Shown: positions 9,370-41,040 of the stretch, one piece after another | Position numbering within the stretch: the first letter of the stretch is position 1 | Layout of the letters: each line of letters begins with the position of its first letter | Source: Moorena sp. SIO3H5 | Lineage (GTDB): Bacteria > Cyanobacteriota > Cyanobacteriia > Cyanobacteriales > Coleofasciculaceae | Assembly: GCF_010692395.1 (NCBI RefSeq) | Contig: NZ_JAAHHS010000023.1 | Span: 721 to 41,760, forward strand | Direction: 5' to 3' | DNA length: 41,040 nt | The notes under the pieces: model-generated | Seen by the model: the letters and a program-made list of their open reading frames with translations, nothing else | What the model was told of the DNA's origin: nothing | Database searches by the model: none | Program-made: the position numbers and the translations under genes

Positions 9370-9558
9370 GATGTAACCTGTATAGTTTGCTTGACTGCTG
9401 AGTGTTAACCAGCGATGCCTCAGGTGCGACCCGTGGCGAATTTAATTCCCCTACGGAAAACGCACCATTACGGTCTTGGGGGAAACCCCCACTCGCGTTT
9501 TGGATCAAGACAATGAAGATGTAACCTGTATAATTTGTTTCACTGTTGAGTCTTAACC
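9370..9558. repeat. Composite element: two ~41-nt direct repeats flanking a third copy of the AGGTGCG...GAATTTAATT...CGCACC motif
   Basis: 9370-9410 GATGTAACCTGTATAGTTTGCTTGACTGCTGAGTGTTAACC versus 9518-9558 GATGTAACCTGTATAATTTGTTTCACTGTTGAGTCTTAACC (36/41 identical). Core lies at 9422-9476. Confidence 0.5.
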
Positions 9559-10398
9559 GTTGAGTGTCAACAGTTGCTCCCCCCATTACCCCCGAAGATC
9601 GGCAGAGCTGTTTCATTTTCGATTTAGACTTAGGGGGGCAGAGTAGCAGAGCAGCGGAGCCGAATTATCCGCAAATATTCGGTTTTGACAGAATTTATCC
9701 CTTTCTAATTCTCTATATCTAACCCTGAAATGAAGAAGCCGGGGGTAGTCAACACTCACCAGTAAACAAGGTATAGATAGCGTTTTATTGGTTCAAATTG
9801 AGCCATGTCCTTATTGTTGCCCAAGATTTTCCATCAATAAACATCTTGAACAAAAATTTTGCAAAATCTTTGCTGAATACCCACTCTGCTTTTATCACAT
9901 CTTTATTTCCCTGGCTGATAATTAATTATTCATGGCTGGTATCATCCATAGCTTATTTATCGGTAATGGTATATTTACCAGCCGCATTTGGTATAATTCG
10001 CTTCTGTAAAATTCGGTAAAAATATTTATTTTAATAAAAATTATAATTAGTAAGTAATTAAATAATATAGCCAAAATATTACGAAGTATGGATTACCATT
10101 AGGAATTATCATGATTATGATAGTTTTAATTAAAACTGACTTATAACACTTACTTGCTAATTGCTATTCTAATCAAAATAAAATTAGTCTTCGATTCAAT
10201 CGCGTATAATCCTAATATAGTATCGGTAAATCAAGTTATAAAATCGACAATTATTTTAGTAATAAGAATATAAAAAACTAGTCTCACTTGTTATAGATGT
10301 AATTTATATTTTTTTTAAAAACTGACCTCTAATATCTTTTTACTATTCCCTAACAAAAATTGACAATAATATCCGTTAATGCATCTGTCGGCGCGTGC

Positions 10399-10584
10399 AT
10401 GATCGATGAGATTTCTATGGCAGACGGCCCTGGAAAACCTGTTGATAGCAAGTGTACATCCCCACCGCAACCAAATAGTATTTGCACCCTAGACATCAAT
10501 GGGTGTGGCAATTCAAGCATTTGCCAGTGTCCTGAGGGGAGCGAATACAATCAGTTATTTGCGTCCTGCGAAATACCCTTGTGA
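10399..10584 (+). CDS. Hypothetical 61-aa six-cysteine peptide (EGF-like Cys spacing), orphan ORF in an AT-rich islet
   Basis: MIDEISMADGPGKPVDSKCTSPPQPNSICTLDINGCGNSSICQCPEGSEYNQLFASCEIPL. The ORF is clearly more GC-rich than its flanks: 26/60 G+C in line 10441 versus 9-16/60 in lines 10081, 10201, 10261. No obvious RBS. An antisense ORF also exists. Confidence 0.35.
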   Translation: MIDEISMADGPGKPVDSKCTSPPQPNSICTLDINGCGNSSICQCPEGSEYNQLFASCEIPL

Positions 10585-10656
10585 TACTAGAACCTGAATC
10601 TGTTAGTAATTCTATCAAGTTCCAGGTGATCACAAGTTAGATAATATCACAATTAA

Positions 10657-10694
10657 CAGTAGAGGGCTCACTGCTGAAAGTGAACCCTCTACTG
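10657..10694. terminator. 15-bp-stem hairpin between convergent Cys-ORF and TerB-like gene
   Basis: CAGTAGAGGGCTCAC-TGCTGAAA-GTGAACCCTCTACTG with one mismatch. No clear U-tract. Confidence 0.45.
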
Positions 10695-10758
10695 AATAGA
10701 TTTAGCTAGTTTTGTCAAAATTATTAATTAAGTTAGTTAATATTAATTAATAATCCTA

Positions 10759-11205
10759 TTACCCTTGATTTTTAATTAACATTACGTCTATAATTTTAAC
10801 AGCAGTATCTTCTGATATCTCTAAAGCATGATAAAGCTCGTTTAAAAACTCTTCTTCATCATCGGTAATTTCTCCATCTGCTAAGATAATATCAGTGGCG
10901 ATCGCAAAGGCTGTTCCTTGTAGTTCATGGGGGAGTGATTTGAGGGCTGCACTAAGAAGAGGATCAGAACCTTGCCGCTGCAGGAGCATCAAAAGTCGTT
11001 CAAACATTCTTGCCATTACATCAGCTGAGTAGCTCCTGAACAGCTGCATTCGAGATAAGGCCGTAATAATGGCTTGTACTTCAGAATTAGTCGCGTATCC
11101 GTCAGCAGCACCAGCAATTAATGCGATCGCAGCAAAGGCTTCAGCTGGTCCGAGTGTTGTTTGGCTGTGTTGACGACTAATTGAAATTTTGTCAAACAGA
11201 CCCAT
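10759..11205 (-). CDS. TerB-like (tellurite-resistance TerB family) protein
   Basis: Track ORF 10759-11328. ATG 11205 gives MGLFDKISISRQ..., the typical start for this family. AAADGYATNSEVQAI and ILADGEITDDEEEFLNEL resemble TerB repeat motifs. Confidence 0.7.
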   Translation of the reverse strand: MGLFDKISISRQHSQTTLGPAEAFAAIALIAGAADGYATNSEVQAIITALSRMQLFRSYSADVMARMFERLLMLLQRQGSDPLLSAALKSLPHELQGTAFAIATDIILADGEITDDEEEFLNELYHALEISEDTAVKIIDVMLIKNQG

Positions 11206-11376: not shown

Positions 11377-13485
<2,109 letters not shown>

Positions 13486-13836: not shown

Positions 13837-14051
13837 ACTAAATTAATCCTCCTAAATTTGAACAAAAAATTCTAACTATACTATCATACAATTATACTAT
13901 CTAGCAAGATTGCTGATAACAAGACGTCATAAGATATTACCAAGCAGGGTCAATACCCGAAAGAATCTGCCTGGGTGATTATACCCTCAAATACTGGAAA
14001 AAAAGACTATTTCATTAACAATTGCGGTTGATCTCGATGAAGGTAAGGATT

Positions 14052-25757: not shown

Positions 25758-26120
25758 TCATTGTTCTAGCTTTTTAATAAGAGCAATAATCATTCGACTT
25801 TCTTCTTTAAGTAAAGAAACAATTACTTCTATATCTGTTTGCTTAGATAAGCCTACTCTAGAAGATAAAATAAGATGTGTTTCTAATTCGTTAATTGAGC
25901 CTTGGGCAATATTAAGAAATCTGATGTACTCAGCGGTTGACCTTCTCCCATATCCTTCTGCTATGTTAGCCGGAATAGATACCGCAGCTCTCCTAATTTG
26001 TTGAACCATACCATATAATTCGTCTTTAGGGAAAAATTTAGTTAATAAATAACACTTTTCGGCTATATCCATGCCTTTTTGCCAAATTATTAAGTCTTTA
26101 AAATTATTAATATATGACAT
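25758..26120 (-). CDS. Four-helix-bundle protein (23S rRNA intervening-sequence protein family)
   Basis: 120 aa; FKDLIIWQKGMDIA, RRAAVSIPANIAEGYGR, FLNIAQGSINELETHL match the family signature as I know it. The gene is AT-rich (17/60 G+C in line 25801). Confidence 0.85.
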   Translation of the reverse strand: MSYINNFKDLIIWQKGMDIAEKCYLLTKFFPKDELYGMVQQIRRAAVSIPANIAEGYGRRSTAEYIRFLNIAQGSINELETHLILSSRVGLSKQTDIEVIVSLLKEESRMIIALIKKLEQ

Positions 26121-32547: not shown

Positions 32548-34572
32548 ATGGAATCTCTTCTGAATGTTCGATTTTCCATTAACCCTTTCCCAAGGGTTAG
32601 GTTTCAGCGTTCCTTGGGATTGGTTTTGCTAGGTGTACTTACCCTACTGCTCACCCTATTACCATGCTCTACCTTAGCACAGGAATCTTTGGCAAATGGC
32701 ACTAAGAAAGCTCCTGTGGTAGTGGATGGTATTGAATTATTTCAAGTGGGCAACGCTGGCAACTTTAGCGCTACTGAGCGAGCCAATCTGATCAATCAGC
32801 GCTTAGCAAGGGAGGTGAAATCCCCACAAAAACCTAAGTATGTGGACATTGAATATGTCGGGCAAAACGAGGGGATTCTTCGTACCAAGTTTACCGAGCG
32901 CATTCTGGTCACCATTACCAAGGCCGATCAAATTCCTGATACTGATCCTCTTGAGCAAGCCCAGAAATGGGAGAAGCTGATTGAAAGGGCAATCCGGCAG
33001 GGCAAACGACAGCGGATGCCAGATTATAGTCGTCAGGCAGTAAGGTTTACAGCCATAGTGCAGGTGTTGTTAATGCTGTTGTACTTGCTGTTACGCTTCT
33101 TCAGGCAATTTGCCTTGCGGAAACTGACCTCTTGGCTAGGGAATCCGGCTTCGCCTTTTTTCCCTTGGCATGACCCAGCCAAATTATTTCTGGGGGCAGC
33201 CCTGTTAGGTTTACAGCTTATCCTGTGGACTACAGCGATCTTAACCATTAGTGACCTATTTCCCCAAGTTCGCAGTTGGCGTTATGACCTGTTAAACTTC
33301 CTCAAGTCTCCTGTCATTGGTGCAGGAGAAAGCAAGTATTCTGCTATCCAAGTGCTGCTGTTGGTGGTATTAACCGTTGTGCTATGGTTTGTGGTTAGTG
33401 CCCTCACCAGGCTATTGAGGCGTTACGTCTTGGGCAAAAGTGGCGCTGATTCAGGGGTGCAAGAGGTTATTGCTATCCTGACCCAGTATGTCCTGACATT
33501 TTTGGGCATGATTATCATACTGCAAAGTTCTGGGTTGGATTTGAGTTCCCTAACCATTTTTGCCAGTGTCTTAGGGGTAGGAATTGGCTTCGGTGTGCAA
33601 AATATTGCTAACAACTTTATCAGTGGCTTAATTATCACCCTAGAGCGACCGATTCAACTGGGGGATTTTATTAAAGTCAACGATTTGGTGGGAACTGTGC
33701 AGCGCATTGGTTCCCGCAGTACAGAAATTTGCACCTTGGATAAAGTGACAATAATTGTGCCCAATGCCCGGTTTTTAGAAACTGAGGTGATTAACTGGAG
33801 TCACGGTAACCCGATTTCCCGGCTCAAGATTCCTGTAGGAGTGGCTTACGGATCTGATGTGGAGCAGGTCAAGAAGGCACTGTTGGCAGCTGCCAAGAGT
33901 CACCCGGAAGTGTTACTGAGGCCCTATCCCCAAGTTTGGTTTCAGGAATTTGGTGAGAGTTCCCTCAACTTTGAGCTGTTGGTCTGGACTGGAGACCCCA
34001 AGCGGCAGCCTAAAATCAAAAGTGACTTGAACTACCGGATTGAGAAAAGTCTGCGTCGCCATGATATCCATATACCATTTCCTCAACGGGACCTCCATGT
34101 GCGATCGCCTCAGTTAGAGAAATTGCTCACGGCTTGGCTGGGGGAGCGTCAGCCAAAACCGCCAGAAAACCAACTCTATATTCCTAATGGATATCAGTCT
34201 GAGCGGCCCACCCAAGATGCTTTAGTTTCAGGTTTCCTAGAGCCGATGGATGAAGTAGATCTAGATTCTTACCCTACGGCTCCTTTGCAAGAGGATATGG
34301 TAACACTAGACATTGAAACCTTGGTCGAGGAAATGCGTCAACCAGGAGGATTGGATATTAAAGACCGTCGCTATCGTCTCAATAGCTATGGATGCTGTTT
34401 TGTTGGCTCAGAAGCCGTAGATTGGTTGGTAAAACGGTGTAATTCTACTCGGGAAGACGCAGTAACTGTTGGACAGATACTAATTAATAGAGGTATTATT
34501 CATCATGTCGCAGATGATCATCCTTTCCGGGATGATTATTTGTTTTACCGTTTTTATTTAGATGAGAATTAA
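32548..34572 (+). CDS. MscS-family mechanosensitive channel with C-terminal DEP domain
   Basis: 674 aa. MscS core NNFISGLIITLERPIQLGDFIKVNDLVGTVQRIGSRSTEICTLDKVTIIVPNARF. Last ~85 aa (nt ~34309-34569) GGLDIKDRRYRLNSYGCCFVGSEAVDWLVKRCNSTREDAVTVGQILINRGIIHHVADDHPFRDDYLFYRF align by eye to the DEP consensus. Confidence 0.85.
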   Translation: MESLLNVRFSINPFPRVRFQRSLGLVLLGVLTLLLTLLPCSTLAQESLANGTKKAPVVVDGIELFQVGNAGNFSATERANLINQRLAREVKSPQKPKYVDIEYVGQNEGILRTKFTERILVTITKADQIPDTDPLEQAQKWEKLIERAIRQGKRQRMPDYSRQAVRFTAIVQVLLMLLYLLLRFFRQFALRKLTSWLGNPASPFFPWHDPAKLFLGAALLGLQLILWTTAILTISDLFPQVRSWRYDLLNFLKSPVIGAGESKYSAIQVLLLVVLTVVLWFVVSALTRLLRRYVLGKSGADSGVQEVIAILTQYVLTFLGMIIILQSSGLDLSSLTIFASVLGVGIGFGVQNIANNFISGLIITLERPIQLGDFIKVNDLVGTVQRIGSRSTEICTLDKVTIIVPNARFLETEVINWSHGNPISRLKIPVGVAYGSDVEQVKKALLAAAKSHPEVLLRPYPQVWFQEFGESSLNFELLVWTGDPKRQPKIKSDLNYRIEKSLRRHDIHIPFPQRDLHVRSPQLEKLLTAWLGERQPKPPENQLYIPNGYQSERPTQDALVSGFLEPMDEVDLDSYPTAPLQEDMVTLDIETLVEEMRQPGGLDIKDRRYRLNSYGCCFVGSEAVDWLVKRCNSTREDAVTVGQILINRGIIHHVADDHPFRDDYLFYRFYLDEN

Positions 34573-34691
34573 TTTAAGTATTCAGCTTAAGCGCTACGCG
34601 CACGCGTGCGCGTTCAGCTATTAGCTTATGCGCGCACTTATCACAGGCTAGAAGCCTGTGCCACGCAAACTACGGTAACAGGCAAAGGCCA

Positions 34692-34740
34692 ACGGCTGAC
34701 CACTGACGGCTGACGGCTGACAGCTGACGGCTGACAGCTG
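34692..34740. repeat. Heptamer array (GACGGCT/GACAGCT)
   Basis: Read directly. Confidence 0.9.
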
Positions 34741-34759
34741 AATACTTAGATTAATTTCA

Positions 34760-35263
34760 TTAACATCCTAAAGAATCGCGAGTATCAACACCAGTTATAG
34801 TATTAGTACCAGAAGCTTTTTTGCATAGCTCCTGGTCTTGGTTATAATCCAAAATTACAAAGGTGAAGTCAGCGCCAGTAATATCTGCACCCTTAAATTT
34901 AGATTTCAATATCATTGCCTCTTCAAACACTGCATCGGTTAAGTCTGCTTCCTTGAAAGTAGATCCATTAATGAATGCAAAGGTAAAATCTGCTCCATGT
35001 AGGTTAGCATTCGTGAAATCAACTTTGGTAATGTTGGCACCTATAAACTTAGCCTTGCTCAAGTTGGCTGACTGTAAATTGACATTGCTAAAAACATTCT
35101 CACTAAAGTCTTCACCGGATTTATCCTGACCGCTTAGATCCTTGTTTTCATAGGTAGCGTTAATGGTGGCAGCGCTTTGGGCTTGGGCTGGCAGAGGCAA
35201 CACTAGAATAGTTAGTGCTAGTAGAAAGGCTGCCAGGTGTAAAAAGTACTTACCGTACTTCAT
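34760..35263 (-). CDS. Pentapeptide-repeat protein with signal peptide (lumenal/periplasmic type)
   Basis: 167 aa. Signal MKYGKYFLHLAAFLLALTILVLPLPAQA, then A(D/N)LxX repeats (ANLSKAKFIGANITKVDFTNANLHGADFTFAFINGSTFKEADL). Confidence 0.85.
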   Translation of the reverse strand: MKYGKYFLHLAAFLLALTILVLPLPAQAQSAATINATYENKDLSGQDKSGEDFSENVFSNVNLQSANLSKAKFIGANITKVDFTNANLHGADFTFAFINGSTFKEADLTDAVFEEAMILKSKFKGADITGADFTFVILDYNQDQELCKKASGTNTITGVDTRDSLGC

Positions 35264-35395
35264 GAATTGCTCTAATCCTCCTGTTGATTAAACGTTGCTG
35301 ACAAGGGTAACTATATCAATTTTTGTAGGAGTTGTGAATAGGGCACTATAGGGCAATTTTCAGCAAGGTTTGAGGGACATTGTTTATAGTTTTAA

Positions 35396-35444
35396 GGCAA
35401 TAGGCAATAGGCAATAGGCAATAGGCAATAGGCAATAGGCAATA
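35396..35444. repeat. Heptamer array (GGCAATA)x7
   Basis: Counted directly. Confidence 0.95.
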
Positions 35445-35594
35445 GCGATGCTTCAGAAAGTAGTATACTAAGATTACGTAATTTTTTTGGGAAGCGATTG
35501 ACCTTGGCCTAAAGGCCACGCTAGGCGAATGGTCACGCTACGCGATGCTCGGTAGGAGCCGCTACGGGAACGCAAAAAAATAGACTTTACTGAG
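35440..35594 (+). repeat. Dispersed GC-rich element, copy A (direct repeat partner of 39565-39748)
   Basis: CAATAGCGATGCTTCAG...GGCCACGCTAGGCGAATGGTCACGCTACGCGATGCTCGGTAGGAGCCGCTACGGGAACGC aligns with copy B at roughly 85 percent identity by eye, with one 9-nt indel. Confidence 0.8.
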
Positions 35595-35627
35595 TAAAAA
35601 TACTTGTTTAATCAATAGGAGTAGAGT

Positions 35628-35781
35628 GGGCATCCTGCCCGCGCGGAAATAAGGAGGAAACTGGCAAGATGCCAGTTCCACGCAAGATGCCCGCGCGAAA
35701 ATAAGCATGAAACTGGCAAGATGCCAGTTCCACGCAAGATGCCAGTTCCACGCAAGATGCCAGTTCCAGGGCAAGATGCCC
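35628..35781. repeat. Array of small hairpins / 18-nt tandem units (CAGTTCCACGCAAGATGC)
   Basis: Repeated TGGCA-AGA-TGCCA and GGGCA-NNN-TGCCC stem-loops. The larger ~55-nt unit is duplicated. Confidence 0.85.
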
Positions 35782-35940
35782 ATTTTACAGGTGCGACCCA
35801 AGGGGGATTTACTCGCCCATGGGAAAGGGCACCTAAAAACTCTTAAAATCATTCCATTATTAAGCAACGCCTACTTTTTCAGTATCCTTGAACAACATAT
35901 TGTCAGTGAATTGCAAACCGCTGTATTTTGGTTTTATAAT

Positions 35941-38900
35941 TTACTCTTCAAACTCCTTAATTGTTTTCATGTATTTTTTTGATGCTCCTTCAGATAATTG
36001 AAGTCTTTGTTCTTTTTTAATGCGAAAATATTCATTATAAACTTCCTGACTTTCTTTCTGCTCAAGTAAATAATCATAAGGACCTTTACCAGACAAAAGT
36101 TTAACTAATATAGGTGAGATTTCAATAGTGACGAATAAGGCAGTTATTAGCCAATTAATATTACGAATATTCGGATCGTCTTTAGATAACTCTTCTAAAG
36201 CAACAAGACGAGCTAAGAAGCCATAGGATTTTTTGTCAATTTTTTCTTGATTCAGTTGTTCTAAGTTACTCTCTGGTGACTGCAAAATAAGATTACGTTC
36301 TTTAAGCTTATCTATTTTATCCTCTTTCTCCTTAACTTTATTATCTAATTCAATAAATTTTTGTTTGATCTCATCTGCATAGTTTCGTTTGTCTTGATAA
36401 ACAATTCCTTTTCCAAGTTGGCCTGTTCCCTGTGTACCTTCTGCTTCTGCATTAGCCGCATATTCTGCATTTTGCCATTCATTTTTGTACTTATTTTTTT
36501 CTATATTTAAGGCTTGAATTTCTTGCTCTAGGTCTTTTATTGGTTCGGTAAGTTCTTCTTTGGATAGTTCATTTTTATCTTGTTCTATTTTCTGGTTAAT
36601 TTCTTTTTCAAAGAGCCTCAACTCAAGGGGTTTAGCAACCACAAAGCTTAACAATAATGCTATTAACAATCGAAGACTTGTTGCTGCAATAAATGGCAAA
36701 TTTAAATTTAAGTCCGTTTCTTTTCTCTTAGAGCTTAAAATTAAAAAACGATCTAAGTTAAAAACTATAAAACTCCAAAACGTTCCTCCTAGACAAGAAG
36801 CTGCTACAGAACCAAATACTGTAAAAAGAGCATAACCACCGGAAAAAATAGCCGTTGTTGATGTTAGCAGAACCGTGGTACCAATTGCTGTATATTTATA
36901 TCGTTCTGTCAAACATTCTTTTTGTGCCAAAATGTGATGATCTGCACCAGCACACCATAGCAAAAATTTTTCTAGTGAATTTAAATTATCGTTAATTGTT
37001 GGAGTCTGTATTAGGTGTTGAAGTTCAGCTGGTAAGCCAATTTCGTTTATAAAAGTACCAACCCCTTCAACACCATAAGTATTCAGAGCACTTTTGATAT
37101 ATTCTGTAGCTCTTTCCTGAATTTGCTCCCGTTGTTGTAAGAAGTCTAAAGCATTATAGTCTTGAGCGGAATTACGGAAGTAATTACCAACCATCGATGC
37201 TAAGACCCTATTCACAAGGTTTTTAATAGAGCTATATTTAACCGCACCCTTAGACAAGGGGCTAAGAACTCCTCCTTCTTCCTCAACTTGCTGAAAACTA
37301 TGAGCATTTGGTGAACCCACACGAGAGATCATTTTAGGAGAATTGTTGGGAGCAATATTAATAACCTGGGTGACTTCAAGATTCAAAATAAAGCCATCTT
37401 TTGAGCGAAGCTTTAATGTGTTCAAATTAGAATCATAGTTGGTTGCTGGTTTATCTCTATTCGTCCAGTCCAAAGTTATTTCATGGGCAGGAACTATTAC
37501 TATATTTTTAACTCTTGTATTGATAGGATGTGTTCCCGCTTCTATTGGTATGTTTTGAATCCCTTTATACCCAATTGGAACGATATTAAACTGAGAACCA
37601 TAAGTATTTTGCTCTTGATTGGCGTGGCTATTCTTACCAACATTGGAGATTAAAACTCCAACTGTTCCAGTTTTAATATTAGTTAAAGGAACTTGTTCAA
37701 CTTCCACAAACCAAGGATTTAAACTCCAAAAACCTTCTTCGATAAATTCTTCTTGTAAACCTCGATAGCCACTTTTGTCAATAAACTCCTGTGGCTCCTG
37801 AAACTTATTATGTCCCTCAATAACTGGTCCTGCAATCTCCCCTCTTGGTAAGGGCTTACCATCAAAAGTAGTAACAATACCAATTTTACCTGATTCAACT
37901 CTGTAAACTTTTAATTGTTCTGGTTTCAGTCCATATTGCTTGGCATTGTCAGTAGTAACTACTGTAAATATTTCAGTGTTTATTCTATAGGAACCTTCAG
38001 TAAGAATTGTGCGCTGTTTACCTTGTTGACCACCGTTGTTGACAAAGGCTTCAGCATTCTGAAAATTATCGCAATCTACAGCTTTACCTAGTATTTGTCC
38101 TGGTGGTAGTTCAGCACCATCTTGAGCAATAACTAGCCCTATCTCCCCTGAGCGAATATTAATTACTGGGACATTATTAACTTTAAACAACTCTGTATTA
38201 ATGTAGTGAGTTCCAGGAGGAATAATTCCTAATTGGTTCCCTTGTTGACCGCCGTTTTTGATAAATGCTTCAGCGTCCTGAAAAGTGTCACATTCAACAA
38301 CTTTACCAAAGTTCTGACCAAGTGGAAGTGGCTGACCATCCCTTGCTTCCACTAACCCTACTTCATTAACTCCAATTTTGATAAGTTCAACTCTCTTAAT
38401 TTTGAAAAGTTCTGTATTAATTGCGTATTTGCCAGTAGTAATAATCTTTAACTGTTGTCCCCTATATCCCCCATTATCAATAAATGCTTGAGCGTCTTCA
38501 AAATTGTTGCATTCAACAGCATCACCAAAGGTTTTTCCAATCGGAAGTGGCTTGCCATCTTTCGCTTCTACTAAGCCAATTTCATAGTCATTAATATGAA
38601 TAATTTTCCTGATTTCAACAGAAAAAAGTTGAGTATTAATCCGATAAATACCATTTCTTAAAATGCCTAACTGCCTACCCCGTTGACCACCATTTTTGAT
38701 AAAAGCACGACCATCTTGAAAGTCATCACATTCTTCGATAACTTTCCCAAAAATTTTACCTGTGGCAAGAGAAGCACCATCGTTGGCGGTTACTAATCCA
38801 ATTTCATCTTTATCAATATGTATAGCCATTTGTTTAACAACTTTATAGCTCAAAGGAGAGTGGAAATGTCTTCCAGGACCAAGAGTATCAACCTGCCAAC

Positions 38901-39021
38901 CCATTTCTCCATTAAGAGCGATTTGACGATTAGATGGTAAAGGACTACCAAACTTTTTATAGACAATTCCAACCTCATCTTGAGAGATTACATAAACGCC
39001 AGGTGCCCGATCAATTGCCAT
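35941..39021 (-). CDS. 1026-aa fusion protein: seven tandem beta-rich modules + SPFH/band-7-like core + DUF4407-like membrane and coiled-coil domain
   Basis: ATG 39021 with GGAG 8 nt upstream. Modules each open with E[IV]G[IL]V at residues 16, 73, 147, 220, 293, 379, 453. SPFH-like segment KDGFILNLEVTQVINI...YIKSALNTYGVEGVGTFINEIGLP. DUF4407-like LLWCAGADHHIL...YKYTAIG...FWSFIVFNLDRFLI plus a K/E coiled coil at residues ~800-930. Low G+C (12-23 per 60-nt line in five sampled lines). Confidence 0.85.
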   Translation of the reverse strand: MAIDRAPGVYVISQDEVGIVYKKFGSPLPSNRQIALNGEMGWQVDTLGPGRHFHSPLSYKVVKQMAIHIDKDEIGLVTANDGASLATGKIFGKVIEECDDFQDGRAFIKNGGQRGRQLGILRNGIYRINTQLFSVEIRKIIHINDYEIGLVEAKDGKPLPIGKTFGDAVECNNFEDAQAFIDNGGYRGQQLKIITTGKYAINTELFKIKRVELIKIGVNEVGLVEARDGQPLPLGQNFGKVVECDTFQDAEAFIKNGGQQGNQLGIIPPGTHYINTELFKVNNVPVINIRSGEIGLVIAQDGAELPPGQILGKAVDCDNFQNAEAFVNNGGQQGKQRTILTEGSYRINTEIFTVVTTDNAKQYGLKPEQLKVYRVESGKIGIVTTFDGKPLPRGEIAGPVIEGHNKFQEPQEFIDKSGYRGLQEEFIEEGFWSLNPWFVEVEQVPLTNIKTGTVGVLISNVGKNSHANQEQNTYGSQFNIVPIGYKGIQNIPIEAGTHPINTRVKNIVIVPAHEITLDWTNRDKPATNYDSNLNTLKLRSKDGFILNLEVTQVINIAPNNSPKMISRVGSPNAHSFQQVEEEGGVLSPLSKGAVKYSSIKNLVNRVLASMVGNYFRNSAQDYNALDFLQQREQIQERATEYIKSALNTYGVEGVGTFINEIGLPAELQHLIQTPTINDNLNSLEKFLLWCAGADHHILAQKECLTERYKYTAIGTTVLLTSTTAIFSGGYALFTVFGSVAASCLGGTFWSFIVFNLDRFLILSSKRKETDLNLNLPFIAATSLRLLIALLLSFVVAKPLELRLFEKEINQKIEQDKNELSKEELTEPIKDLEQEIQALNIEKNKYKNEWQNAEYAANAEAEGTQGTGQLGKGIVYQDKRNYADEIKQKFIELDNKVKEKEDKIDKLKERNLILQSPESNLEQLNQEKIDKKSYGFLARLVALEELSKDDPNIRNINWLITALFVTIEISPILVKLLSGKGPYDYLLEQKESQEVYNEYFRIKKEQRLQLSEGASKKYMKTIKEFEE

Positions 39022-39175
39022 AAGAAAAACTCCAATTAGATTAACTAGTTAATAATCAAAATCATACTATTTCGCTACCTTAATTCTTATTATTTTAACG
39101 TGAGTTTGACGAACTGGACAAAGGTGAAAGAGGGAGCATGTCACTTATGCAGCAACATTAGTACTAAATTTAGAG

Positions 39176-39259
39176 AATGGGGAATGGGGAATGGGGAATG
39201 GGGAATGGGGAATGGGGAATGGGGAATGGGGAATGGGGAATGGGGAATGGGTAATGGGT
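39176..39259. repeat. Heptamer array (AATGGGG)x10 + 2 variants
   Basis: Counted directly. Confidence 0.95.
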
Positions 39260-39329
39260 AATAGGTATAGCAGTCGCCAGGGCAGTTAGGACATGACAAA
39301 AGTCTCAAACCTAAGTAAGCGCAAGAGTT

Positions 39330-39364
39330 TGACTTCTGACTTCTGACTTCTGACTTCTGACTTC
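39330..39364. repeat. Heptamer array (TGACTTC)x5
   Basis: Counted directly. Confidence 0.95.
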
Positions 39365-39564
39365 TGCTGTAATAGGGGGAGCATCTCACAATAGCCGAGT
39401 ATTTTTACTTTTTCTATAGCCCTCTCATGGGTAATTGCTTGCTAATCATGGTAAATAGTTGATCTGTTTTGCAACTAATACTTGCTCATATCTCGCATTT
39501 TTGTTGTTTTGTCAAGTAGTTCATGTGTTCGCCAAATTTGACCTGCTCCCGATCCATCCGATGA

Positions 39565-39748
39565 CAATAGCGATGTTTCAATAAGTAGTATATAAGTTAC
39601 GGAATTCTGTTGGGACGCGATTGACCTGGGCCTTTAGGCCACGCTACGGGAATGGTCACGCTACGCTCCGGAAGCGATGCTCGGTACGAGCCGCTACGCG
39701 AACGCATTCTGGGGCACTTCCGGTACATGGAAAAACAGACTTGAGCAG
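39565..39748 (+). repeat. Dispersed GC-rich element, copy B (direct repeat partner of 35440-35594)
   Basis: CAATAGCGATGTTTCAA...GGCCACGCTACGGGAATGGTCACGCTACGCTCCGGAAGCGATGCTCGGTACGAGCCGCTACGCGAACGC. Confidence 0.8.
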
Positions 39749-39876
39749 TTACATCGAAGCGATCAGGCAAGCATACCCATTCTCAGCCAGGGTAAACCCC
39801 TCGAAATTTGTCTCAAAAGTTACAGCTAAAAGGGAAACCGCCGTAAAAAGATTTGGTCGATTTTTAGAAAGGGGTT

Positions 39877-39904
39877 TTGACAACCGGATTTGGGCTCATA
39901 TAGT
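39877..39904 (+). promoter_or_regulatory. Near-consensus sigma70-type promoter pointing into the minisatellite
   Basis: TTGACA (39877-39882), 16-nt spacer, TATAGT (39899-39904). Confidence 0.3.
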
Positions 39905-40036
39905 AAATAGGTTAGTTTTCAGTATAAGTTATAACATACTTTTGTAACATTTACTGATATAGGGCTGTCATATCCTGCATGTTTGGCTCTACTACCTATA
40001 CGACATTGAGTTTGAACAAAAATCTAGGAATTTTAC

Positions 40037-40255
40037 ATGAGGTTTTACATGAGGTTTTACATGAGGTTTATGAGGTTTTACATGAGTTTTATGAGGTTTT
40101 ACATGAGGTTTATGAGGTTTTACATGAGGTTTATGAGGTTTTAGATGAGGTTTTACATGAGGTTTGACATGAGTTTTATGAGGTTTTACATGAGTTTTAT
40201 GAGGTTTTAGATGAGGTTTGACATGAGGTTTTACATGAGGTTTTACATGAGGTTT
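40037..40255. repeat. Minisatellite: 20 tandem units (13 x 12-mer ATGAGGTTTTAC-type, 7 x 9-mer ATGAGGTTT-type)
   Basis: Units parsed one by one; total 219 nt. All unit lengths are multiples of 3. Confidence 0.95.
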
Positions 40256-40603
40256 ATAAGTTGACAAACACTTTGAATTAGATTTAATATATTGAAGCAA
40301 GTTAAATTTCCTTGGTTTAATACAATTAGGAGTTGTGAAACAGATAAAAAAAATCATGCCCTGGCATCTATAGTAAGTACTAAATAATCAGCTATCAGCT
40401 GTTACCTTGTTATCATTTTGCTCAAACCGGGGTGCCGATTAATGGCAAGCTCTATGAGCTATACCAAGAATCAGAAAAGGTGGAAGAATACCGCCAATCC
40501 CAAGGTAAGCTAGATGTATGTGAAGGTTGCACAGTTTGGTGTTATTTGATTCCCAGCTTCTTTATGGGTGTGGACAAATATTGGTGGTTGAATCAAGTTA
40601 CCT

Positions 40604-41040
40604 ATGCCAGCGAATTTCTGGCCCGAAAACGATTCTTACAACGAGCTTGACCCACTCAATTCTCTGTTGTCAGACGTTGATTTAACAGAGGATCTGGAGA
40701 CGGAGGTGGAGACAACTACTTTATCTCTACCATCCCGGTTTCAAGGTCGTAGACGCAAGGCCGCTCTAGTTCTCACAATGGTTTGGAGCGGTACTATTGC
40801 CTTGAATTTACTTTCTTGGGGCTCCTTGTTTGTATTGGGGCTGACTACAATTATGGGTATTCATGCCTTGGTGATAGTTTTTGCTAAACCCAGGGAAAAA
40901 ATTTCCCAGATCCAGGGTGATTATCCCTATGTATCCGTGTTGGTGGCGGCAAAAAATGAGGAAGCTGTCATCGGCAATTTGGTGGAAAATCTTTGTAATT
41001 TAAAATATCCAGATGGAAAATATGAAGTCTGGATTGTTGA
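40604..41040 (+). CDS. Family-2 glycosyltransferase with N-terminal TM helices, 3' end beyond window
   Basis: Not in ORF track. Hand translation from ATG 40604: MPANFWPENDSYNELDPLNSLLSDVDLTEDLETEVETTTLSLPSRFQGRRRKAALVLTMVWSGTIALNLLSWGSLFVLGLTTIMGIHALVIVFAKPREKISQIQGDYPYVSVLVAAKNEEAVIGNLVENLCNLKYPDGKYEVWIVD. VSVLVAAKNEE...YEVWIVDD is the GT2 N-terminal signature. In-frame TGA lies at 40589. Confidence 0.85.
   Translation, partial: MPANFWPENDSYNELDPLNSLLSDVDLTEDLETEVETTTLSLPSRFQGRRRKAALVLTMVWSGTIALNLLSWGSLFVLGLTTIMGIHALVIVFAKPREKISQIQGDYPYVSVLVAAKNEEAVIGNLVENLCNLKYPDGKYEVWIV

Follow-up and report, generated by a model that had tools for sequence, protein, structure and literature searches.

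Direct repeats around a pan-Moorena SPFH-DUF4407 gene: probable old spacer copies rather than ends of an excisable cassette

Introduction

When two direct repeats enclose a single AT-rich gene, is the enclosed DNA a cassette that can come and go, or a resident gene in a neighbourhood full of repeats? The question is raised by a locus of the filamentous cyanobacterium Moorena sp. SIO3H5, in which two same-orientation repeats, here called copies A and B, bracket a gene for a protein of 1026 amino acids (aa) with an SPFH (Band_7) domain and a DUF4407 region. The DNA analysed, referred to below as the window, is a stretch of 41,040 nucleotides (nt) of contig NZ_JAAHHS010000023.1 with a G+C content (GC) of 42.9%. 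An earlier note on this sequence had proposed that the segment is a horizontally acquired or recombination-mobilised cassette, and that the repeats could mediate its excision or loss. Here we compare the window with ~10 related genomes; orthologous loci in M. producens, M. bouillonii and a large number of Moorena sp. metagenome-assembled genomes (MAGs) are 92-96% identical to it. We find no sign that copies A and B have served as the attachment sites of a DNA element that can be excised, and we consider it the likelier account that a long-resident Moorena gene is flanked by old paralogous copies of a spacer sequence, not by attachment (att)-like ends of a cassette.

Results

The gene and both repeats are shared by three clades of Moorena

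The cores of copy A (35440-35574) and copy B (39565-39706) lie in the same orientation with 119 matches in 133 ungapped columns (89.5%), or 82.6% identity with gaps counted, in agreement with an identity of ~85% judged earlier by eye. Just one open reading frame (ORF) of at least 100 aa lies between them, at 35941-39021 on the minus strand, and it is accompanied, as noted before, by a hairpin array and two heptamer arrays of kinds that are common over the window. We find this gene in every Moorena genome examined, namely strains 3L, JHB and PAL of M. producens, strain PNG of M. bouillonii and over 15 Moorena MAGs, with orthologous proteins 88-95% identical to that of the window. A neighbour-joining tree of the gene, midpoint-rooted and built without an outgroup, resolves three clades: JHB, L060, 3L, L059 and L062 in clade 1, PNG and SIOASIH in clade 2, and PAL, the window and ERZ505124 in clade 3. 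The order pentapeptide-repeat gene, copy A, gene, copy B is represented in all three. Both copies flank the gene in SIOASIH, ERZ505124, JHB, L059, L060 and L062, while 3L has copy B on a short contig and the 3.8-kb contig L075 (GCA_010672555.1, JAAHGJ010001150.1) carries copy A. By parsimony, the repeat-gene-repeat arrangement is therefore probably ancestral.

Excision or loss through the repeats would leave a single repeat copy at the site, and this is seen in none of the 9 syntenic loci compared, which come from the three clades and do not include the MscS-DEP locus of PAL. The MscS-DEP locus of PNG is found without the pentapeptide and SPFH genes, and cannot count as an empty site because a 100-N scaffold gap begins 240 nt past the MscS stop codon. 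The window is 93.7-96.0% identical to other genomes in the SPFH-DUF4407 gene, compared with 94.0-94.8% in the MscS-DEP gene and 93.6-95.0% in ilvE, and the GC at third codon positions (GC3) of all Moorena orthologues examined is uniformly low (0.22-0.25). This similarity in divergence to the neighbouring genes and the shared low GC3 point to old residence and not to recent acquisition.

A search for homologues of the pentapeptide-repeat protein returned no useful Moorena orthologues. The MscS-DEP gene (32548-34572) encodes a C-terminal DEP domain (Pfam E = 1e-22) in an architecture kept across many filamentous cyanobacteria. A candidate case of horizontal transfer, 'Moorea sp. SIO2B7', with 88% identity in the gene and just 57% in MscS-DEP, was rejected: contig L075, which is binned under that name, is 93% identical to the window in nucleotide sequence and syntenic with it, and is thus probably mis-binned Moorena.

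Relocated copies of the gene carry neither repeat

In M. bouillonii PNG (L063, with flanks in L065) and in the complete genome of M. producens PAL (PAL-8-15-08-1; L064), the gene lies in neighbourhoods that differ from that of the window and contain PhdYeFM/ParE toxin-antitoxin (TA), DUF433 and Tc-toxin genes, from which we conclude that recombination has moved it around. When the window is compared with these two loci by BLASTN, the shared DNA delimits a conserved block on the minus strand (35937-39131) that consists of the ORF and ~80-110 nt upstream: the DNA shared with PAL spans 35937-39097 and that shared with PNG 35937-39131 only, and neither includes a repeat. The corresponding block in clade-1 genomes is 35924-39130. 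The repeats thus do not delimit the unit that was mobilised, and of the earlier proposal of a recombination-mobilised cassette the movement of the gene stands, while its bounding by copies A and B does not. A consensus scan places a promoter-like site for the gene (TTGTCC-18-TAAAAT; 39092-39121, minus strand), 71 nt upstream of the start codon and inside or at the edge of this block.

The PAL gene is itself bracketed by another pair of direct repeats, ~560 nt long and 95% identical (L064 6874-7432 and 12758-13380), which derive from the PhdYeFM antitoxin region and contain hairpin arrays. A DUF433 fragment stands upstream of the gene in JHB and PAL and downstream of it in PNG, and related hairpin arrays flank the gene in PAL.

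Copies A and B have recombined with each other, and the DNA to the right of copy B varies between genomes. The end of copy B in JHB and L060 consists of an A-type outer-right module (R2, described below) followed by a 106-nt extension whose place in other genomes is to the right of copy A (92% identical), which shows that the two copies have exchanged sequence. The right flank of copy B has at least three continuations, one in the window, 3L, L059 and L062, one in SIOASIH and ERZ505124, leading to an SpvB/Tc toxin gene, and one in JHB and L060, and it differs even where the genes are 99.6% identical. Synteny with the SIOASIH/ERZ505124 type stops right after 39751, and with 3L, L059 and L062 it runs on to 39839 and into a tandem array of TTTTACATGAGG units. 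The surroundings of the gene are a hot spot of rearrangement, and shuffling on a large scale is not confined to them: the pentapeptide gene of ERZ505124, for instance, adjoins a transaldolase gene from which 20 kb separate it in the window.

Each repeat is a composite of outer modules and an inner hairpin chain

Self-BLAST of the window finds no other non-tandem repeats of at least 90 nt besides A/B and intragenic TPR repeats. The 17-mer core of the repeat, for which 0.00 chance matches are expected, is found almost solely in Moorena genomes by 17-mer scan and BLAST. We aligned the A and B sites of the window, SIOASIH (L054), ERZ505124 (L055, a metagenome assembly), JHB (L061), 3L (L008) and the SIO MAGs L059, L060 and L062, and find that each repeat is composite, with locus-specific outer modules L, R1 and R2 (~100 nt) placed around a variable chain of hairpin units of 16-32 nt. 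Across this alignment module L ends ...CTTCAAAAAGTAGTATATAAGTTACGGAATTCTGTTGGGAAGCG, R1 begins ACGCATTCTGGGGCACTT... and R2 begins AAAAACAGACTT..., and the inner units are I1 (ATTGACCTTGGCC-loop-GGCCACGCTACGCGA), I2 (ATGGTCACGCTACGCG) and I3 (ATGCTCGGTACGAGCCGCTACGCGA).

All modules of the window copies are given on the plus strand. Copy A comprises module L (CAATAGCGATGCTTCAGAAAGTAGTATACTAAGATTACGTAATTTTTTTGGGAAGCG; 35440-35496), a chain of three units of the dispersed Moorena family (35497-35572), namely I1 (ATTGACC..GGCC-loop-GGCC..CGCTAGGCGA), I2 and I3 (ATGCTCGGTAGGAGCCGCTACGGGA), and an A-type R2 (AAAAAAATAGACTTTACTGAGTAAAAATACTTGTTTAAT; 35573-35612). Its first bases are abutted and overlapped by a heptamer array (AGGCAAT x7.3; 35395-35445, plus strand) identified by Tandem Repeats Finder (TRF). 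Copy B comprises L (39565-39619), a chain (39620-39704) of I1, I2 with a 9-nt remnant of another unit type, and I3, and modules R1+R2 (CATTCTGGGGCACTTCCGGTACATGGAAAAACAGACTTGAGCAGTTA; 39705-39751); its chain is joined on the left as GCGA to TTGACC and on the right as CTACGCGA to ACGC, a HIP1-like GCG(T/A)(A/T)CGC site. The full extents, with R1 included, thus reach ~35612 in copy A and ~39751 in copy B. A 9-nt insertion in copy B that had been noticed earlier is real (GCTCCGGAA/TCCGGAAGC, ~39667-39675). A second, of ~25 nt, corresponds to ~24 nt of extra sequence at 39707-39730 (TTCTGGGGCACTTCCGGTACATGG), which is module R1; because copy A of SIOASIH retains this stretch (ATTCTGGGGCACTT), it is ancestral and was deleted from copy A of the window, so that the extra sequence is confirmed and its reading as an insertion is not.

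The outer modules occur at just two sites in 624 kb of loci, both of them flanking the gene in syntenic Moorena loci; 169 kb of this census are unrelated Moorena loci. Module L at the B site is 93-95% identical to the orthologous sites of SIOASIH and ERZ505124, and orthologous L modules are more alike than the paralogous A and B copies of one genome (~82-89%). Comparison of the two ends of the L-inner chain-R repeat over their terminal 70 nt shows no inverted match of at least 9 nt, save a poly-T/A run, and the repeat has no target duplication. Folding of A and B gives no significant structure, only small local hairpins (fold z-scores -1.5 to +0.4). BLASTN of the repeat against PLSDB plasmids gives no match, an outer-left 19-mer gives three chance matches without further similarity, or none, in metagenome and viral collections, and Rfam and tRNA searches of the region find nothing.

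Nested in R2 of copy A in the clade-1 genomes and L075 is a ~115-nt palindromic insert that resembles a miniature inverted-repeat transposable element (MITE), with ends GGACTTACGC...GCGTAAGTCC and TACTCAG on both sides (L061 ~13278-13390, L059/L062 ~13856-13968, L075 ~2590-2720); the window lacks it.

The inner units are dispersed and often end in HIP1-like sites

The inner units, unlike the outer modules, are a multi-copy family, with 7-9 exact-core copies per representative Moorena genome, mostly as chains of differing composition, and four Moorena genomes together have 25 exact-core copies, spread over 22 loci (within L003-L052). The earlier note had allowed that the repeat might be simply one of hundreds of copies; the inner core does belong to a dispersed family, and the outer modules do not in the 624 kb of loci compared. 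Units I1-I3 each end ...CGCTACGCGA, and they form local hairpins (GACC/GGCC-loop-GGCC/GGTC and GCTCG-GTA-CGAGC). In 23 of the 25 family copies the left junction joins (G/A/C)CGAT to TGACC, and the chains are bordered by GCGA(T/A), in the window at 35489-35580 and 39612-39712. The right end is directly the HIP1 octamer (GCGATCGC) in 7/25 copies and a one-mismatch variant of it in another 7/25, and a HIP1 site lies no more than 110 nt to the right in 14/25 copies, compared with ~5% expected. In L003, the palindrome GAAAAGCGATCGCTTTTC is restored once the chain is removed.

Filled and empty forms of the same site are also seen. The B site of SIOASIH and ERZ505124 is chain-free and reads GGGAAGCG-T-ACGCATTCTGG, and it is filled in the window, 3L, JHB and L059-62, with two tandem chains in copy B of JHB and L060. 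Copy A of ERZ505124 has no I3, so that unit number differs among orthologous copies at both A and B, and an unrelated orthologous site has 2, 3 or 4 units in three species. The junctions suggest that chains may insert into, or grow out of, HIP1 sites. Genes for Y1_Tnp (IS200-like) transposases are present in neighbouring Moorena loci.

The gene is compositionally atypical

The gene has a GC of 0.355 and a GC3 of 0.239, the latter 3.5 standard deviations (sd) below the mean of the other window genes of at least 600 nt (z = -3.5; mean 0.414, sd 0.050, minimum 0.319). Its codon-usage divergence is 0.107 per codon, compared with 0.057-0.076 for genes of comparable length. Seven of seven G+C counts made by hand in the earlier note (16, 12, 18, 23, 21, 32 and 28) are reproduced exactly, and its call for a check of composition is answered by an atypical gene. 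The expectation that would have spoken against the cassette, namely a segment that shows no presence/absence polymorphism and a gene with resident-like composition, is borne out in its first part across the 9 loci, but not in its second. The reported lack of HIP1 octamers inside the gene is true but not significant for the gene alone (1.9 expected, P = 0.155), and we rejected it as stand-alone evidence; 23 octamers occur in the window, none beyond 34101, and their absence from 34102-41040 has P = 0.009.

The gene is not the sole compositional outlier of the window, which has two other low-GC spots: ~1.2 kb at 9600-10800 has a GC of 0.29-0.34, and a 120-aa ORF at 25758-26120, with a GC3 of 0.223, deviates in codon usage more than any other ORF of the window.

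The protein combines predicted vault-like repeats, an SPFH domain and DUF4407

The ORF, on the minus strand, was annotated with Pfam, AlphaFold2 and Foldseek. Repeat analysis and the model place six ~73-aa beta-rich repeats at residues ~1-460 (39021-37642), followed by an SPFH/Band_7 domain at residues 466-676 (37626-36994; PF01145, 4.9e-22, 79.3 bits vs a cut-off of 23.6) and DUF4407 at residues 702-989 (36918-36055; PF14362, 3.3e-65, 220.7 bits vs a cut-off of 31.3, aligned to positions 5-296 of the 297-position profile). The AlphaFold2 model of residues 1-699 (36925-39021), with a pLDDT of 86.2, shows the six beta-rich repeats and then the SPFH domain. That of residues 690-1026 (pLDDT 92.7) is all-helical, with transmembrane helices and a long coiled-coil hairpin, and the DUF4407 region has hydrophobic segments at 773-804 and 955-977. 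The best Foldseek match of the residues 1-699 model is the eukaryotic major vault protein (MVP; E = 3e-12), with SPFH ring proteins next, and prohibitin, stomatin, erlin, flotillin and HflK/C are matched with a Foldseek probability of 1.00. Because the Pfam Vault family is not matched at E <= 0.01 and structural alignments to MVP give ~10% identity, the resemblance to MVP is one of architecture and fold only. Searches with the protein of PADLOC-DB 2.0 (E <= 0.01), NCBIfam and PDB sequences give no match.

The complete fusion is confined to Moorena. Its N-terminal 65% is common among cyanobacteria, where it is 45-75% identical and joined to different C-termini (vWA, STAND NTPase or none), and its C-terminal part shares 40-58% identity with stand-alone DUF4407 proteins. 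Nostoc sp. CHAB 5784 and a metagenome contig each have a GUN4 gene followed by a Band_7 gene and then immediately by a DUF4407 gene, which argues that the Moorena gene is a fusion of an operon pair. These operon loci, including a variant with Trypco1, are L069 2323-8610, L070 5588-11380 and L072 8334-13033.

The closest non-Moorena relative of the N-terminal two-thirds, P0007, has 75% aa identity and a GC3 of 0.225. It closes an operon with the order Trypco1, Trypsin_2-GUN4, SPFH, which stands next to an integrase. Its contig is 37% GC and HIP1-free, and carries genes for a ResT/TelK protelomerase, ParA and Alp7A. This composition and this mobile-element-like contig make a foreign origin plausible and suggest an ancient transfer of the gene into Moorena; the proposal of horizontal acquisition thus agrees with the foreign-like composition and the context of P0007, but a recent date is unsupported for a gene that is pan-Moorena.

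The P0007 contig looks like a linear plasmid-prophage. More distant homologues are found in a 642-kb uncultured phage (LR756502.1; 37% identical to the repeat-SPFH part), in Prevotella Lak megaphages (DUF4407 homologues, 31% identical) and in Rhizobium megaplasmids ('flotillin family' homologues, ~30% identical).

Other repeats in and around the segment

Downstream of the gene lies the hairpin array (35636-35780, minus strand; family D12, TRF) with periods of 52 and 18 nt, inside which two terminator-like stem-loops are predicted on the minus strand (35679-35657 and 35735-35705). Upstream of the gene are two heptamer arrays on the plus strand, GAATGGG x12.6 (39175-39262) and TGACTTC x5.3 (39330-39366), both identified by TRF. 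About 20 heptamer or hairpin arrays are spread over the window by the same method, and the segment is not special in this.

A dispersed ~46-nt element (CAGGTGCGACCC...GCACC; family D20) is found at 35788-35833, between copy A and the gene, with a second copy 26 kb off at 9421-9466; related copies adjoin the B site in SIOASIH and ERZ505124. To the right of copy B, a degenerate tandem array at 40031-40255 holds ~20 copies of the TTTTACATGAGG unit and of TTTATGAGG, at a position conserved in M. producens 3L, L059 and L062.

Discussion

Should the locus be read as a cassette after all? A 4.3-kb cassette that entered by Campbell-type or site-specific recombination at the repeat, and that could be excised by recombination of A with B, would account for same-orientation repeats of 135-190 nt around a single compositionally atypical gene, for the exchange between A and B in JHB and L060, and for gene contexts that differ in PAL and PNG; the ~560-nt repeats of different sequence around the PAL gene would then suggest that duplicative insertion may recur. 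We nevertheless regard this account as quite unlikely, given that none of the 9 syntenic loci is empty, that the segment and its surroundings, with pentapeptide-repeat and MscS-DEP genes as neighbours, contain no integrase or tRNA, that homology to the relocated copies ends at the ORF, and that the gene has diverged as much as its flanks. The orthologous repeats are also closer to each other than the paralogous ones are, and so give no sign of recent duplication or integration. An unlikely alternative on somewhat different grounds is that the whole L-inner chain-R unit is a non-autonomous MITE-like element that was inserted twice independently, making the bracketing incidental. The inner part is clearly a dispersed family, other small mobile elements such as the ~115-nt insert nest here, and the window is dense in dispersed repeats, one motif (CGCTACGCGAAC) occurring 9 times vs 0.09 expected; the outer modules, however, are confined to their two sites in a census that includes the 25 inner-core copies, the ends lack terminal inverted repeats and a target duplication, and plasmid, viral and metagenome collections hold no matches.

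It seems to us very unlikely that copies A and B are kept for co-regulation as a common cis-regulatory or leader element. It is true that both copies stand upstream of minus-strand genes (B 545 nt from the SPFH-DUF4407 gene, A 180 nt from the pentapeptide-repeat gene), that these positions are conserved in many genomes, and that module L is well conserved between species at orthologous sites. Against this, the promoter-like sites (35338-35310 and 39121-39092) are outside the repeats and none is inside either copy, Rfam and folding give nothing significant, the inner content is highly variable, and the gene is intact in PAL and PNG, where the element is missing. Least credible of all is a chance pairing of two members of an abundant family around a gene whose low GC follows from amino-acid composition: repeat density in the genome is very high and the coiled-coil region is rich in K, N, I and E, but outer modules common to these two copies only, and a GC3 that is largely independent of amino-acid content and yet far below that of other genes, largely refute it, as does an arrangement conserved in three clades.

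A different kind of alternative concerns the gene and not the repeats. The ~3.2-kb block of promoter and ORF could conceivably be a self-contained conflict or defence module, relocated through circular or duplicative intermediates at any flanking direct repeats, although we would give this little weight. Under such a scheme copies A and B, which enclose the gene in most lineages, and the 560-bp pair from the TA region of PAL may be two examples of such repeats, and the block may relocate repeatedly within, and possibly between, Moorena genomes, with the PNG copy as a possible intra-genus transfer. With as little weight, the nested inner units could be a previously undescribed class of micro-element that inserts into, or grows out of, HIP1 sites.

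We therefore return to the account of a long-resident gene between old paralogous spacer copies, against which several observations weigh. The gene of PNG is 98.7% identical to that of SIOASIH, compared with 95.4% for their MscS-DEP and 97.2% for their ilvE genes, which hints at intra-genus exchange and not strictly vertical descent. The term ancestral rests on parsimony with a midpoint-rooted tree that has no outgroup. The outer-module census covers 624 kb of loci and not whole genomes, so that extra outer copies elsewhere are possible, and the PNG MscS-DEP locus has its 100-N gap just downstream, with the PAL locus outside the comparison. Selection or expression level, and not a foreign origin, could in principle account for the low GC3, and the separate Band_7 and DUF4407 genes of Nostoc and the metagenome contig are just mildly AT-shifted.

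A history consistent with the favoured account would begin with transfer of the gene, the simplest explanation of its composition, out of a low-GC mobile element of cyanobacteria at a time before the lineages of Moorena sampled here diverged. The outer sequence (L + R1 + R2) would have been duplicated before the split of the three clades, perhaps by local duplication or by a Campbell-type insertion in an ancestor. Dispersed hairpin units would have nested at the HIP1-like site in each copy, to be gained and lost unit by unit at orthologous sites, and since the duplication A and B would have been ordinary substrates of ectopic recombination, with exchange between them and breakpoints gathering at the right end of B. 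Purifying selection presumably keeps the gene despite its flanking repeats, in a repeat-saturated and rearrangement-prone intergenic setting in which, judged from sequence alone, it appears to carry its own promoter region and terminator hairpins.

How does the locus compare with known systems? The small dispersed repeats (SDRs) of Nostoc punctiforme and its relatives, said to have been described by Elhai and colleagues in Genome Res in 2008, are reportedly very small and nested. The Moorena units are likewise shorter than 100 nt, hairpin-forming, intergenic, nested and present or absent at orthologous sites, and thus appear to behave like the very small nested repeats of Nostoc, here with an association with HIP1. 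They differ in belonging to another sequence family and genus, and in forming chains with a GCGA(T/A) border that often end in HIP1; the two are likened by features alone. With repetitive extragenic palindromic (REP) elements, too, the units share short dispersed hairpins, filled and empty orthologous sites and nesting in other repeats. REP/REPIN elements owe their mobility to RAYT (Y1/HUH) transposases (Bertels and Rainey 2011, PMC3116915). The likeness extends to palindromic extragenic units that stand singly or in clusters and, circumstantially, to the Y1_Tnp genes of neighbouring loci, but the Moorena units are heterogeneous and are not inverted doublets. Genomic islands flanked by att sites also have direct repeats around compositionally atypical DNA, but here neither an integrase nor a tRNA target is present, no presence/absence polymorphism is seen in the sampled genomes, the bracket encloses one gene and predates the splits of the species, and copies of the gene that have moved are without the repeats.

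The protein resembles SPFH scaffolds (flotillin, YqiK, HflK/C, stomatin, prohibitin) and MVP in a Band_7 domain above cut-off and in a model that matches the MVP repeats and SPFH 'shoulder'; it differs from MVP in its ~10% identity, its ~73-aa repeats and a DUF4407 transmembrane coiled coil in place of the MVP cap helix. A distinct and much closer MVP homologue of Moorea producens, F4Y3B4, has already been described (bioRxiv 10.1101/872010). From the predicted structures, the protein is probably a membrane-anchored SPFH scaffold with vault-like repeats, fused to a DUF4407 transmembrane coiled-coil partner. Trypco1 is a trypsin-co-occurring domain and GUN4 a cyanobacteria-specific effector-associated domain, and both are hallmarks of the vWA-MoxR/VMAP-type conflict systems of multicellular bacteria, in which they and Trypco2 occur together with peptidases of the trypsin or caspase type (Kaur et al. 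2020, PMC7159879). Among homologues of the N-terminal module are proteins with a C-terminal vWA domain and genes that adjoin Trypco1, Trypsin_2-GUN4 or GUN4 genes, and the fusion probably derives from a conserved operon that is often linked to such GUN4-protease conflict-system genes. The window gene itself has no adjacent peptidase, GUN4, vWA or MoxR gene and no PADLOC match, and a conflict role is suggested by association only.

The locus carries a caution: where a cyanobacterial genome is saturated with repeats, the presence of direct repeats on both sides of an AT-rich gene is not enough to identify an excisable island. The series of filled and empty sites at HIP1-like positions bears on the purpose of HIP1 and on the spread of small dispersed repeats. 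SPFH and DUF4407 form a conserved cyanobacterial pair, fused here, which provides a first functional lead for DUF4407, and a predicted vault-like N-terminal module with swappable DUF4407, vWA or STAND NTPase C-termini is a candidate membrane-associated conflict system.

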